NCBI GenBank assembly: GCA_021783095.1
Contig: JAJXUG010000009.1
Location: 28,025-92,024 of the forward strand
Reading direction: 5' to 3'
Origin: Chloroflexota bacterium
Lineage (GTDB): Bacteria > Chloroflexota > Limnocylindria > Limnocylindrales > CSP1-4
DNA length: 64,000 bases
The position numbers and the translations under genes are program-made. The notes beneath the pieces were generated by a model that was given only the letters and a program-made list of their open reading frames with translations, searched no databases and was not told the DNA's origin. Position 1 is the stretch's first letter. Every line of letters begins with the position of its first letter. Shown here piece by piece: positions 52,743 to 64,000 of the stretch.

Positions 52743-55700
52743 ATCGCACCGCTTGAGGCCCTGACGCCAGGCGCGACCGTCCGCGGCCTCGACCCGGACT
52801 CCCTCGCCAGCGTCGTCCACGCCCAGTGGTTCGGCTCCGACGCCATCGAGCTGACCTACAAGACCGCAGCGGGCAAGGTCGCCAGCGAGATCCTGTACCG
52901 CCACGACGAGGCGCGGCTCGACATCGTCGAGGCCGGGCGGCCGTGGAGCTTCGACGGCGACGGCGCGCAGTTCCGCCTGGTCGCCGAGGCGAACCGGATC
53001 CACCTCGCCCACCTCTTCGACCCGGTCCTGGCCGTCCACACGTCGCTCGTCGACCCGCTCCCGCACCAGATCACCGCGGTGTACGAGGAGATGCTGCCGC
53101 GCCAGCCGCTGCGCTTCCTGCTCGCGGACGACCCCGGCGCCGGCAAGACGATCATGGCGGGCCTCCTGATCAAGGAGCTGATCGCGCGCGGGGACCTCAA
53201 GCGCTGCCTCATCGTGTGCCCGGGCTCCCTCGTCGAGCAGTGGCAGGACGAGCTCGGACGCCGGTTCCACCTGCCGTTCGAGATCCTGACCAACGACAAG
53301 CTCGAGGCCGCCCGAACGGGCAACTGGTTCCTCGAGAACGACCTCGCCATCGCGCGCCTCGACAAGCTCTCGCGCAACGAGGACGTGCAGGCGAAGCTCG
53401 CCGCGCCGGACTGCCGGTACGACCTGATCGTCGTGGACGAGGCGCACAAGCTCTCGGCCACCTACTTCGGCGGCGAGCTCAAGTACACGAAGCGCTACCG
53501 CCTGGGCCAGCTGCTGTCGGGCCTCACGCGCCACTTCCTGCTGATGACGGCCACGCCGCACAACGGCAAGGAGGAGGACTTCCAGGCCTTCCTCGCTCTG
53601 CTCGACGGTGACCGGTTCGAGGGCAAGTACCGCGACGGCGTCCACCAGGTCGAGGTCTCGGACCTCATGCGCCGGATGGTCAAGGAGAACCTGCTCCGCT
53701 TCGACGGCAGGCCGCTGTTCCCTGAGCGCATCGCCTACACCGTGCCCTACAGGCTCTCGGACCCCGAGGCGCGGCTGTACCGCGAGGTCACCGAGTACGT
53801 CCGGGGCGAGTTCAACCGGGCGGAGGCCCTCCAGAACGACAAGCGCGCTGGGACGGTCGGTTTCGCGCTCACCGTCCTGCAGCGCCGTCTCGCCTCCTCG
53901 CCCGAGGCGATCTACCAGTCGCTCCGGCGGCGGCGCGAGCGCCTCGAGAAGCGCGGCCGCGAGATGGAGCTCCTCCAGCGCGGCGCCGCGGTAGCCGCCC
54001 CGGCCCCGGCCGCGCTCGCGGGCCCCCTGCTCGACGACGACGACATCGCGGACCTCGAGGACGCGCCTGACACGGAGGTCGAGGAGGCCGAGGAATCCGT
54101 CCTCGACCAGGCCACTGCGGCCGCCTCGCTTGCCGAGCTCGAGCTCGAGATCGGCACCCTGAAGCGGCTGGAAGGCCTCGCCGCCGAGGTCCGGCGCAGC
54201 GGCCAGGACACCAAGTGGCGCGAGCTCGCTCAGCTCCTCGGCGAGATCCTGACGCCGCAGGCGCTGCATGGCCGCATCGGGGAGCCGACCGTGCCGTACG
54301 GGGCGGGGCCGATCCCGAAGCCCGTCCCCTCGCCGCGCCAGAAGATCGTGATCTTCACCGAGCACCGCGACACGCTCTCCTACCTCGAGCGGCAGATCGG
54401 GACCCTGCTCGGGCGGCCGGACGCCCTCGTGATGATCCACGGCGGGATGGGCCGAGAGGAGCGCCGCAAGGCGCAGGAGCGGTTCCTCTTCGACCCCGGT
54501 GTCCAGGTCCTGCTCGCCACCGACGCCGCCGGCGAGGGCATCAACCTCCAGCGCGCGCACCTGATGGTCAACTACGACCTGCCGTGGAACCCCAACAGGT
54601 TGGAGCAGCGCTTCGGCCGGATCCACCGCATCGGCCAGGAGGAGGTCTGCCACCTCTGGAACCTCGTGGCCGACGAGACCCGCGAGGGCGACGTCTACCG
54701 CCGCCTGCTCGAGAAGCTCGAGGAGGCGCGCCAGGCCCTCGGCGGCCAGGTCTTCGACGTCCTGGGCAAGCTCCAGTTCGAGGGGCGGCCGCTGCGCGAC
54801 CTCCTGATCGAGGCGGTCCGCTACGGCGACCAGCCCGAGGTCCGAGCGCGGCTCACCCGGGCGATCGAGGACGGCGTGGACCGCCCGCACCTCGAGGGCC
54901 TTATCGAGGACCGCGCGCTCGCGCACGACGTCATGGACGCCTCCCGCGTGGCGTCGATCCGCGAGGAGATGGAGCGCGCCGAGGCCCGCCGGCTCCAGCC
55001 CCACTACATCGAGTCGTTCTTCCTCGAGGCGCTCAAGCAGCTCGGCGGGACGGTCCGCCAGCGGGAGCCGCACCGCTACGAGGTCACGCACGTGCCGGCC
55101 ACGGTCCGCAGCCGGGACCGCCAGACGGGCACTGGCGACCCGGTCCTCGCCCGGTACGAGCGGATCGCATTCGAGAAGGACCTCATCTCCCCGCTGGGCC
55201 AGCCGCTGGCCGCCTTCATCTGCCCGGGGCACCCGCTGCTCGACGCCGTCCTCGACCTCACGCTCGAGCGCCACCGCGACCTGTTGAGGCGCGGCACGGT
55301 GCTGGTGGACGAGCGCGACCCGGGCGCGGCGCCGCGCGTGCTCCTGACCCTCGAGCACGCCGTGCAGGACGCGAGCCTCCTGCCGTCGGGCGAGCGGCGA
55401 GCCGTGTCGCGCCGGATGCTCTACGTCGAGATCGACGCCGAGGGCACCGTCCGCACCCCGGCGTCGGCGCCCTACCTCGACTACCGGCCGCTGGCGGATG
55501 GCGAGCCGACCGCGTCTGACCTGCTGGCCCGGCCCGAGTGCGCCTGGATCACCCGCGAAATCGAGCGGGTGGCCCTCGGCCACGCCATCGCCAATGTCGT
55601 CCCGCAGCACCTCGACGAGGTCCGCGACCGCCGGCTCGCATGGGTCGGCAAGACACGGGCCGCGGTCAAGGACCGGCTCACGAAGGAGGTCTCCTACTGG

Positions 55701-62210: not shown

Positions 62211-64000
62211 GTGGCCATCACGAACCAGGAGCGCGTCGGCAAGGCGATGGACCTGCTCCGCGCGGGCCTCGCCCCGTACGCTGAGCGGGAGCTCCAGAAC
62301 CTCCACCCGGGCCGCGTCGACGAGGTGGCCCGTCACTACCTCAACGACGACCGCACGGTCGGCCAGCGGCCGATCTCGGACTGGGACGTCGCCGCGCTCC
62401 TGCGCCTCATGTGGGATTCGTGGAACGACGTGTTCGCACGGACCCTGGGCCGCGCCGAGCGATCGCTCGTCCAGGAGCTCCGCGACGCCCGCAACAAGTG
62501 GGCGCACCAGGAGCCGTTCTCCAGCGACGACGCCGACCGTACCCTCGACTCCATCGCCCGCCTGCTCACGGCCGTGTCCGCCCCGGAGGCCGACGAGGTC
62601 GGCCGGATGAAGCTCGAGCTGCGTCGCCTCGTGTTCGAGGAGCAGGTGCGCGCCGAGAAGCGCAAGGCCGGCGGTGCACTCGTCGAGTCCTCCTCGATCG
62701 GCGCCCTGCGCCCCTGGCGCGAGATCGTCACCCCGCACCCCGACGTGGCGAGCGGGCGGTACCAGCAGGCGGAGTTCGCCGCGGACCTCTGGCAGGTCCA
62801 CCTCGGCGAGGGCACCGACGAGTACCGCGACCCGGCCGAGTTCTTCCGGCGGACGTACCTCACCGAGAGCCTCAAGCGCCTGCTCGTGGACGGCGTCCGG
62901 CGCCTCTCGGGCACGGGCGGCGACCCGGTGGTCCAGCTTCAGACGAACTTCGGCGGCGGCAAGACGCACTCGATGCTCGCGCTGTACCACCTGTTCAGCG
63001 GCGTGAACCCGGCGGACCTCGCGGGGGCCGACGCGGTCCTCGCCGAGGCGGGCGTCACGGCTGTCCCGGCGGCGCGGCGGGTCGTGCTCGTCGGCAACAA
63101 GATCTCGCCCGGCAACCCCGTCACGAAGCCCGACGGCACCGTCGTTCGAACGCTCTGGGGCGAGCTCGCCTGGCAGCTGGGCGGGCCCCGGGCGTTCGCC
63201 CGCGTCGCCCTGGACGACGAGCGCGCGACCAACCCGGGTGACACCCTGCGCGAGCTGTTCGTCGAGTACGGGCCGTGCCTGGTGCTCGTGGACGAGTGGG
63301 TGGCGTACGCGCGCCAGCTCCACGACCAGGGCGACCTGCCGGCAGGGGGCTTCGAGACCCAGTTCACCTTCGCGCAGGCGCTGACCGAGTCGGCCAAGCT
63401 CGCGGGCAACACCATGCTCGTGATCTCGCTCCCGGCGTCGGACACGTCCGGGTCGCCCCACGCGGTGACCGACGACGTCGAGGTGGGCGGCGTGCGCGGG
63501 CGGGAGGCGCTGGACCGCCTGCGCAACGTGGTCGGCCGCCTCGAGTCCTCGTGGCGGCCCGCCACCGCCGAGGAGGGGTTCGAGATCGTCCGGCGGCGCC
63601 TTTTCCAGACGATCTCCGGCCCCGATGCATTCAAGGCCCGCGACGTGACGGCGCGGGCCTTCGCCGACATGTACCGCTCGCAGGCCCCCGAGTTCCCGCC
63701 CGAGTGCCGCGACGCCGAATATGAGAGGCGGCTGCAGGCAGCCTTCCCGATCCATCCCGAGATCTTCGACCGCCTCTACAAGGACTGGTCGACGCTGGTG
63801 AAGTTCCAGCGGACACGTGGCGTCTTGCGCCTGATGGCCGCCGTGATCCACAGCCTCTGGGAGAGCGGCGACCGGAACCCGCTCATCCTGCCCTCCACGA
63901 TCCCGATCGATGACGCCCGTGTCCAGTCCGAGCTGACCCGGTACCTATCCGACAACTGGGCGCCGATCATCGAGAAGGACGTCGACGGCCCGAGCTCGCT
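62211..64000 (+). CDS. Swt1-like HEPN domain fused to DUF499 P-loop ATPase (partial, runs off window)
   Basis: Not in the ORF track because there is no stop in the window. GTG 62211 is preceded by AGGAG (62201-62205). Manual translation VAITNQERVGKAMDLL... HEPN R-x4-H in RDARNKWAHQ. DUF499-type Walker A QTNFGGGKTHSMLAL and FQRTRGVLRLMAAVI. Confidence 0.8.
   Translation, partial: MAITNQERVGKAMDLLRAGLAPYAERELQNLHPGRVDEVARHYLNDDRTVGQRPISDWDVAALLRLMWDSWNDVFARTLGRAERSLVQELRDARNKWAHQEPFSSDDADRTLDSIARLLTAVSAPEADEVGRMKLELRRLVFEEQVRAEKRKAGGALVESSSIGALRPWREIVTPHPDVASGRYQQAEFAADLWQVHLGEGTDEYRDPAEFFRRTYLTESLKRLLVDGVRRLSGTGGDPVVQLQTNFGGGKTHSMLALYHLFSGVNPADLAGADAVLAEAGVTAVPAARRVVLVGNKISPGNPVTKPDGTVVRTLWGELAWQLGGPRAFARVALDDERATNPGDTLRELFVEYGPCLVLVDEWVAYARQLHDQGDLPAGGFETQFTFAQALTESAKLAGNTMLVISLPASDTSGSPHAVTDDVEVGGVRGREALDRLRNVVGRLESSWRPATAEEGFEIVRRRLFQTISGPDAFKARDVTARAFADMYRSQAPEFPPECRDAEYERRLQAAFPIHPEIFDRLYKDWSTLVKFQRTRGVLRLMAAVIHSLWESGDRNPLILPSTIPIDDARVQSELTRYLSDNWAPIIEKDVDGPSS

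Follow-up and report, generated by a model that had tools for sequence, protein, structure and literature searches.

Which defence system is encoded by the four large genes that close a 64,000-nucleotide (nt) stretch of a Chloroflexota genome (GenBank GCA_021783095.1, contig JAJXUG010000009.1, positions 28,025 to 92,024; hereafter the window), and does the third of these genes belong to it? A first-pass annotation had described the genes as a methylation-associated cluster of "Hma/MADS-type". We assign the locus, with a probability of roughly 85%, to Hma: a complete hmaA-hmaB-hmaC operon of the HEPN-fused variant, which houses an independent Ppl/TrlF-family gene between hmaB and hmaC. The Hma and Ppl identities follow from full-length PADLOC profile matches, a score above the TrlF cut-off, and motifs that are intact throughout. 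The 11 kb can thus be filed as Hma, or Type-1 BREX-related (BR), plus an embedded Ppl-family gene, within a wider defence island.

Hma, a restriction-modification-like anti-phage system, takes its name from helicase, methylase and ATPase; the paper describing PADLOC introduced it as a candidate, with approximately 1,600 occurrences in 26 phyla (Payne et al., 2021; PMC8565338). Its neighbourhood, to which Aravind's group had already drawn attention in 2013, has been re-described as the Type-1 DUF499-centred BREX-related systems (Rakesh and Krishnan, 2026; PMC12839542). Embedded genes occur in 62.7% of 1,485 Hma loci, are co-oriented with the operon in 96.7% of cases and include many known defence systems, and this "guilt by embedding" has been used to discover new ones (Payne et al., bioRxiv 10.1101/2024.01.29.577857). 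Insertions have also been reported in about 66% of hma loci, with Septu, PARIS and Ppl among the systems found inside (Liu et al., 2024; PMC11232893). Both the system and the embedding are therefore already documented, and the locus is a sound annotation that adds little new to the field.

An Hma operon with one embedded gene

Under the PADLOC definition, an Hma locus has a single copy of each of its three genes, all in one orientation, and no more than three embedded genes between neighbours. HmaA, HmaB and HmaC are all encoded on the + strand of the window, and one gene is embedded, between hmaB and hmaC (Table 1). HmaA matches profile PDLC00659 with 1636 bits (residues 4-1194; profile positions 4-1171 of 1176) and HmaB matches PDLC00660 with 1489 bits. 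For HmaC, the fragment inside the window reaches 666 bits, and the complete gene, taken from the contig described below, reaches 1112 bits and covers positions 2-940 of the 941 in the profile. The domains proposed for the four genes in the first-pass annotation (SNF2-DUF3883, DUF1156, PHP-ABC and HEPN-DUF499) were all recovered with Pfam, and their E-values, like the full-length profile matches, lie well outside what chance would produce. It had also named profile matches to unrelated families as a possible refutation; the matches obtained were to Hma and Ppl profiles.

HmaA comprises an N-terminal beta-barrel, a Snf2 ATPase (Pfam SNF2-rel_dom/ResIII and Helicase_C, the latter at 1e-21) and a C-terminal PD-(D/E)xK nuclease of the NOV_C family (formerly DUF3883; 9e-18, residues 1076-1161, nt 55968-56225). 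The helicase motifs PHQ107, GAGKT132, DEAH232 and QRFGRIHRIGQ622 are present, as are D1102, E1117-V-K1119 and E1134 in the nuclease. The nuclease residues match the catalytic residues D1084, E1104, K1106 and E1121 of the Halomonas protein, and the distance from K to E, 15 positions, is the one found between Halomonas K1106 and E1121. HmaA of Halomonas meridiana protects E. coli from phage T4 on its own, and this protection needs both the Snf2 domain and the four NOV_C nickase residues (Liu et al., 2024; PMC11232893). The closest solved structure to HmaA is RapA. Homologues of HmaA fall into more than 120 clusters (built at 90% identity) with at least 80% identity and about 100% coverage over approximately 1190 amino acids (aa). 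The protein is unusually conserved across phyla, with relatives in Burkholderiales, Planctomycetota, Gemmatimonadaceae and Gammaproteobacteria (homologues P0122-P0240), whereas identity drops to 67-78% for the HmaB and HmaC proteins of these loci.

HmaB has a DUF1156 N-terminus (5e-26), a weak match to the D12 methyltransferase family, and the motifs FAGGG184 and DPPY622 separated by a large insert; the single DPPY-type methyltransferase expected in the cluster is located here. We infer by analogy that HmaB methylates adenine at N6, as is supported both by its DPPY motif and by the classification of 2026; the label "m5C" (5-methylcytosine) given in 2021 does not fit a DPPY motif. In HmaC, an N-terminal Swt1-like HEPN domain (HEPN_Swt1, 3.9e-37, residues 11-123; nt 62241-62579) is fused to a DUF499 ATPase of the ORC/Cdc6-type AAA+ class (2e-21), in which VDE360 was found. 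A sequence search of the Protein Data Bank (PDB) found no structure related to HmaB or HmaC. The three candidate nucleolytic modules claimed earlier could each be placed, in E1117-V-K1119 of HmaA, the PHP histidines of the third gene and the R-x4-H motif RNKWAH94 of HmaC. Likewise, the three claimed NTPases each have a Walker A motif, in HmaA, in the embedded gene and in HmaC (GGGKT248).

Type-1 BR systems have been described with a helicase made up of TUDOR, Snf2, inactive restriction endonuclease (REase), alpha/beta and active REase domains, and with HEPN fused to DUF499 in 1370 of 2446 taxa (PMC12839542). Of these features, the window has an active-type PD-(D/E)xK domain at the C-terminus of the helicase and HEPN fused N-terminally to the DUF499 ATPase. 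Residues 12-62 of HmaA were modelled as a five-strand beta-barrel with a predicted local distance difference test (pLDDT) score of 73-85, and its best Foldseek matches were SH3-like/KOW barrels (eS4 and EF-P), none of them at E<=0.001. Given the moderate confidence of the model and the non-significant matches to SH3-like barrels, a Tudor assignment of this N-terminus would be tentative at most.

The four co-directional genes are tightly packed, with the junctions that had been noted from the sequence: an ATGA overlap between the hmaA stop and the hmaB start, a 3-nt gap between hmaB and the embedded gene, and a 37-nt gap before hmaC. All four are free of frameshifts and internal stops, and the whole window has about 71% G+C. 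A sequence scan found no terminator-like site between the genes, and co-transcription with translational coupling is most likely; the wider scan was uninformative (no sigma-70 promoter-like sites, and two terminator-like sites against five expected). All four genes are under purifying selection. The ratio of nonsynonymous to synonymous substitution rates (dN/dS) is 0.14-0.23 for hmaA, hmaB and hmaC in comparison with the locus L085, which carries an 89%-identical hmaA orthologue from another metagenome.

The cluster had been described as running off the window, with more genes possibly following. The first part holds, as hmaC ends 1.6 kb beyond the window, and the second does not. On L001, a contig of the metagenome-assembled genome (MAG) GCA_027325005.1 and the longest of the contigs shown that carry the locus, the sequence is 100% identical to window positions 49411-64000 and extends 2.3 kb further. 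It contains the complete hmaC (12801-16196, 1131 aa), followed by a 153-aa open reading frame (ORF) without a family match, an incomplete ORF that resembles a helix-turn-helix (HTH) gene by a weak match to HTH_23, and the contig end. These two ORFs lie at 16236-16910 of L001, or about 65646-66320 in window numbering. The Hma system ends with hmaC, and the ORF that follows is unrelated to it.

The start of hmaA required closer inspection. The codon at 52743 is ATC rather than ATG, GTG or TTG, and none of these three occurs in frame between the stop at 52686-52688 and a GTG at 53079, which is codon 113 of hmaA. The ATC is preceded by GGGGGAGG at a spacing of 5 nt and falls, in alignments, on Met1 of homologues whose sequences open with M(T)KLEDL. 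In the closest orthologue, that of L085 (89% aa identity; synonymous divergence, dS, about 0.49), the GGGAGGTCC.GC-ATC arrangement recurs and a canonical start is again missing. Because of the Shine-Dalgarno-like sequence, the alignment with Met1 and the conservation in L085, we accept ATC 52743 as the start, in agreement with the coordinate given in the first-pass annotation. Judged from sequence, a conserved non-canonical start at this ATC is the best call, and CTG 52761 is less likely. That CTG, six codons downstream, is also conserved (window 52730-52763; L085 3690-3725). We rejected GTG 53079, since it would remove 112 residues including the PHQ Q-motif, and the first 105 of these are 70-77% identical to homologues. 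Gene callers shorten the hmaA product to 1080 or 1172 aa.

Base composition differs among the genes: the G+C content at third codon positions (GC3) is 0.965 in hmaA, 0.815 in hmaB, 0.761 in the embedded gene and 0.955 in hmaC. A recent cassette swap of hmaB, which this pattern could suggest, was rejected because the cargo-free loci L085 and L086 show an equal dip. In the three loci (window 56330-59407; L085 7288-10311; L086 10028-13081), GC3 of hmaB lies about 0.1 under that of the flanking hmaA and hmaC. Being common to three related loci, the dip is a property of the gene family and not a sign of a recent swap here. Recent exchange remains plausible only for the embedded gene and for the PDC-S39 candidate upstream of hmaA.

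Comparison with related defence systems

Compared with Hma (Payne et al., 2021), or the Type-1 DUF499-centred BREX-related systems (Rakesh and Krishnan, 2026), the window encodes the same three full-length proteins in the same gene order. Common features include the C-terminal NOV_C PD-(D/E)xK domain of HmaA with its catalytic residues, the HEPN_Swt1 fusion of HmaC, the DUF1156 N-terminus of HmaB, and the embedding of foreign defence genes in the operon. The window differs from other Hma loci in the ATC start of hmaA, in a cargo that consists of a Ppl-family gene without a partner, and in its source, a high-GC Chloroflexota MAG.

Several evolutionarily related systems share parts of this inventory. 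MANTIS (Gao_RL, Type-2 BR), a sister system of Hma, has a homologous DUF499 AAA+ ATPase, a DUF1156-type N6-methyltransferase and a superfamily 2 (SF2) helicase-nuclease. In that system, the ATPase and a co-activator load the methyltransferase, which hemimethylates asymmetric 6-bp sites, and the helicase-nuclease restricts unmodified DNA (bioRxiv 10.64898/2026.09.23.753747). For AAA+ loading of the methyltransferase and for restriction by the helicase-nuclease, this is the best model that has an experimental basis. MANTIS, however, has an N-terminal PLD/HKD nuclease and the co-activator DUF3780/MtsB, whereas the window has the C-terminal PD-(D/E)xK domain and HEPN on the ATPase. Neither PLD nor DUF3780 was matched in Pfam by the cluster genes or the downstream ORF, and the PLD_Helicase profile (99 bits) matches the C-lobe of the helicase only. 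BREX type 3 (BrxC, BrxXI/PglXI and BrxHII) likewise has a homologous ATPase, methyltransferase and Snf2 helicase, and HmaA scores about 300 bits against BrxHI/BrxHII. The window cluster lacks PglZ, BrxA, BrxB and BrxF, and the BrxHII helicase is without an active nuclease.

Like Hma, the defence system MADS (mad1-mad8; Maestri et al.) is associated with methylation and comprises several genes, some of them for ATPases. Its proteins are different ones, and MAD6, MAD7 and MAD8 are mandatory in the model of its authors. No mad profile appears in the complete PADLOC match lists of HmaB (11 families) and HmaC (2 families), or among the best 25 matches of HmaA; only mad3 weakly matches the ABC ATPase of the embedded gene (51 bits, 4.8e-14). 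Of the designation "Hma/MADS-type", therefore, the Hma half stands on full-length PADLOC matches to HmaA, HmaB and HmaC, and the MADS half falls, MADS being a separate eight-gene system. As for DISARM, HmaA reaches 385 bits against DrmD, but the NCBIfam profile DISARM_DrmD gives 369 bits against a cut-off of 610, and no DrmA-, DrmB- or DrmC-like gene was found in the cluster. The partial matches, which extend to DUF1156_MTase (66 bits) and DUF499 (125 bits), are what could be said for placing the cluster in MADS, MANTIS, DISARM or BREX type 3. The Hma profiles are matched in full, with scores 4 to 20 times as high, and PLD/HKD, DUF3780, DrmA/B/C, PglZ and mad6-8 all went unmatched. Membership in any of the four systems is highly improbable, and we rejected it on profile scores and absent hallmark genes.

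The embedded gene and the loss of its partner

The embedded gene matches the PADLOC Ppl profile with 361 bits over positions 4-893 of 894, and the NCBIfam family TrlF_fam_ATP with 535 bits against a cut-off of 350. It encodes a fusion of an N-terminal PHP phosphoesterase (Pfam PHP, 4e-6; approximately nt 59438-60175) and an ABC ATPase that resembles SMC and Rad50 and contains a long coiled coil (AAA_21/SMC_N). The motifs HAHS18, DHN57, E83, H147 and SDSH215 were located in the PHP part, and Walker A (GTGKS309), the signature SPGQQ797, LLDQPEDDLD818 (Walker B/D-loop) and H853 in the ATPase. PHP metal ligands that are invariant in 28 homologues (D16, H18, H20, D57, H58, E83, H90, H147, D216 and H218) are all present, as are the invariant ABC motifs (GTGKS, SPGQ, D820/E823 and H853). 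In an AlphaFold model (pLDDT 80.6), the N-terminus forms a PHP barrel, and a coiled coil of about 240 residues divides the ABC head in two. Foldseek relates the model to MukB, JetC, Smc and Rad50 heads and to the PHP domains of EndoQ, RNase AM and Pol III, and the PDB sequence search gave a generic ABC match only. The family is large (1,653 matches at E<=1e-5), and its best 120 members, from many phyla, are at least 52% identical. Ppl is reportedly a single-gene anti-phage system that combines PHP with an ABC ATPase, an observation attributed to Gao and colleagues in 2020. Our literature searches under the names "TrlF" and "Ppl system" gave irrelevant papers only.

Solitary genes of the TrlF family are found on 1,150 plasmid records, mostly of conjugative enterobacterial plasmids, and the window copy resembles these in its full-length profile match, its score above the TrlF cut-off, its conserved PHP ligands and ABC motifs, and in being solitary. 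For a wider comparison we used 80 related loci chosen by similarity to the window protein from species-representative genomes, which do not form an unbiased sample. Only about nine of the 80 adjoin Hma genes. The insertion site in these varies, with hmaB-ppl-hmaC in most, hmaA-ppl-hmaB in L013 and ppl after hmaA in L016. The nearest HmaA orthologues, in L085 and L086, lie in plain hmaA-hmaB-hmaC operons with no embedded gene and a 3-nt hmaB/hmaC junction. The scarcity of Hma neighbours, the varied insertion site, the cargo-free orthologues and the solitary plasmid copies are together the signature of an autonomous, mobile cargo, in line with the published embedding. The PHP-SMC-like ATPase between methylase and DUF499, pointed out in the first-pass annotation, is indeed there, but it is a known defence gene, Ppl, in a published type of arrangement and not a new feature.

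In contrast to the plasmid copies, the clade of the window gene usually has a translationally coupled partner. In 78 of the related loci the sequence extends far enough beyond ppl to judge, and 65 of these encode, directly 3' of ppl, a 419-aa protein with AlbA_2 (Schlafen) and HATPase_c_4 domains. In the closest relatives (L087-L090), the start of its gene and the stop of ppl share 8 nt. Together, Ppl and this partner resemble a two-gene module. Neither PADLOC-DB v2 nor NCBIfam contains a model for the partner, and our literature searches found no paper describing a PHP-ABC and Schlafen pair. Schlafen-type proteins of the AlbA_2 plus HATPase_c_4 architecture have been reported as widespread back-up RNase effectors around BREX/BR loci, and also as anti-phage tRNases.

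Three stages of partner loss can be read from related Hma loci. In L087 and L088 (Ppl 72-73% identical), ppl and an intact partner lie between hmaB and hmaC, and the partner ends ...DKE-stop-GCC-ATG. In L091 (Ppl 80% identical), a 136-nt relic remains, in which the first codons of the partner are still readable (MGDCGDLARRDPSATDSELNLNR vs MDSLDDLARRIRLGEDSELE) and which ends ...LDLAKE-stop-GGCG-ATG, the ATG being that of hmaC. The 37 nt in the window end ...ELAKE-stop-GGC-GTG (hmaC), and hold a mini-ORF, MVARELAKE-stop (62179-62208), together with the hmaC ribosome-binding site AAGGAG. From these comparisons, the spacer is probably the relic of the deleted Schlafen partner. Between the two partner-less copies of ppl, in the window and in L091, dN/dS is 0.15 at a dS of 0.82, which indicates that ppl has been maintained by selection after partner loss. 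The partner-less gene is probably functional alone, as its plasmid-borne relatives appear to be. The intact pair, the 136-nt relic and the 37-nt relic thus form a clean natural experiment, and selection on ppl without its partner bears on whether the sensor ATPases of such pairs can act alone.

The residual novelty of the locus lies in this decayed partner with its retained ATPase, in the conserved non-AUG start of hmaA, and in the frequency of a Schlafen partner among relatives, in this sample, of a supposedly "single-gene" Ppl. The last two, concerning 65 of 78 Ppl relatives and the start codon of a nuclease-helicase effector, are small testable leads.

Several points weigh against assigning the locus to a complete, working Hma operon with an embedded Ppl. 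Within the window hmaC is incomplete, and its completeness rests on the identical external contig L001. As hmaA lacks a canonical start codon, its level of expression is uncertain. In Halomonas, over-expression of HmaB left T4 infectivity unaltered while HmaA worked alone (Liu et al., 2024; PMC11232893), so that methylation-based discrimination of self from non-self is a hypothesis for any Hma system. The embedded gene scores 451 bits against the NCBIfam equivalog Ppl_antiphage, under its cut-off of 1000, and shares no more than some 35% identity with the enterobacterial and plasmid Ppl/TrlF genes; on sequence it is Ppl-like, a member of the TrlF family and not an equivalog of the tested Ppl. 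Finally, the partner that its clade normally has is absent here.

Two of these points, the missing start codon and the missing partner, could be taken to mean that the locus is partly decayed, with hmaA silenced and ppl left as the orphan of a broken module: there is no ATG, GTG or TTG from the in-frame stop to codon 113, and the partner has shrunk to 37 nt. However, the ATC and its Shine-Dalgarno-like sequence are kept in an orthologue at a dS of about 0.49, the reading frames and catalytic motifs are undamaged, and dN/dS is low (0.14-0.23) across all four genes, which makes such decay quite improbable. It is also unlikely that this Hma variant has made the PHP-ABC ATPase an integral fourth component, for example an additional nuclease or sensor that works with HmaB or HmaC, rather than carrying it as independent cargo. 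Its place inside the operon between 3-nt and 37-nt junctions, the recurrence of the order hmaB-ppl-(partner)-hmaC in eight loci (L005, L022, L034, L038, L062, L087, L088 and L091), and purifying selection on ppl in two diverged Hma loci after partner loss would all fit co-option. Set against this, Hma genes are missing from the vicinity of about 70 of the 80 related loci, ppl stands among housekeeping genes in L089 and L090 (71% identical), and the varied insertion sites, the cargo-free closest orthologues and the common solitary family members on plasmids point the same way. A more speculative version, which we regard as doubtful, is that the ATPase was captured by Hma after losing its Schlafen-RNase partner, for example by signalling to or using the HEPN RNase of HmaC, and that the ATC start acts as a translational throttle on a toxic HmaA nuclease. 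If this were true, the locus would be a genuine four-component Hma variant and not a nested pair of independent systems.

Proposed mechanism and the surrounding defence island

For Hma with an independent Ppl-like cargo, we infer the biochemical steps by analogy with related systems. HmaB, as a DPPY-type amino-methyltransferase, would mark host DNA at a short motif. The AAA+ ATPase of HmaC, an ORC/Cdc6-type loader or scaffold, probably loads or activates HmaB, as in the MtsA/MtsC pair of MANTIS. On unmarked invading DNA, the Snf2 motor of HmaA would translocate and its C-terminal PD-(D/E)xK domain would nick or cut, as suggested by the Halomonas HmaA, and the HEPN domain of HmaC could serve as a back-up RNase. 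The embedded protein may act separately, its SMC/Rad50-like ABC ATPase sensing foreign DNA or a phage product and licensing the metal-dependent PHP nuclease. In the lineage of the window, this module has lost its usual Schlafen-type partner and kept the ATPase alone.

Table 1. Coordinates of the Hma locus and of the defence-associated genes upstream of it, in window numbering.
Feature	Position	Strand	Basis
Schlafen/AlbA_2 protein, stand-alone, 527 aa	42618-44198	-	AlbA_2, 5.8e-6
BilABCD, complete ubiquitin-like conjugation (bacterial ISG15-like) system	45311-48203	-	PADLOC, E 9e-31 to 4e-125
BilD	~45311-46678	-	416 bits
BilC	46681-47190	-	177 bits
BilB	47171-47665	-	181 bits; Pfam DUF7665
BilA	47637-48203	-	106 bits
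XRE-type HTH gene, divergent from Bil	48150-48650		
HTH_17 (excisionase-type) protein, ~415-430 aa	49319-50614	+	weak match to the 60-residue mad1 HTH profile
Candidate PDC-S39, 583 aa, DUF7380 + DUF4209	50791-52542	+	PADLOC, 2.4e-19
Shine-Dalgarno-like GGGGGAGG, 5 nt 5' of the hmaA ATC	52730-52737	+	sequence reading
hmaA, Swi2/Snf2 helicase-nuclease, 1196 aa	52743-56333	+	PADLOC HmaA, Pfam
hmaB, DUF1156-type DNA methyltransferase, 1025 aa	56330-59407	+	PADLOC HmaB, Pfam
Embedded ppl-family gene (TrlF family), 920 aa	59411-62173	+	PADLOC Ppl, NCBIfam
37-nt spacer, probable relic of the Schlafen partner gene	62174-62210	+	comparison with related loci
hmaC, 596 of 1131 aa inside the window, inferred GTG start	62211-64000	+	PADLOC HmaC, Pfam

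The operon is part of a defence island, as a complete BilABCD system and a candidate PDC-S39 gene lie just upstream (Table 1). The PDC-S39 candidate is 200 nt from hmaA on the same strand and has a low GC3 (0.74) like that of ppl. Between BilABCD and this candidate, the HTH_17 protein could be a regulator or the remnant of a mobile element. Rfam families were not matched at 42-64 kb, and neither an integrase nor a tRNA was seen in the window, so that no tRNA-linked integration site is visible. The stand-alone Schlafen/AlbA_2 protein, which is dissimilar to the lost partner of ppl, forms the boundary between the island and the housekeeping genes that precede about 42.7 kb. These encode an HD-domain protein, electron transfer flavoprotein (ETF) alpha and beta, and ETF-quinone oxidoreductase (ETF-QO; ETF and ETF-QO at 37089-41026). 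ETF-QO makes a high-GC Chloroflexota species the probable host, in preference to an actinobacterium, as the best named relatives of this gene are from Chloroflexota (Limnocylindrales; 63-66% identity).

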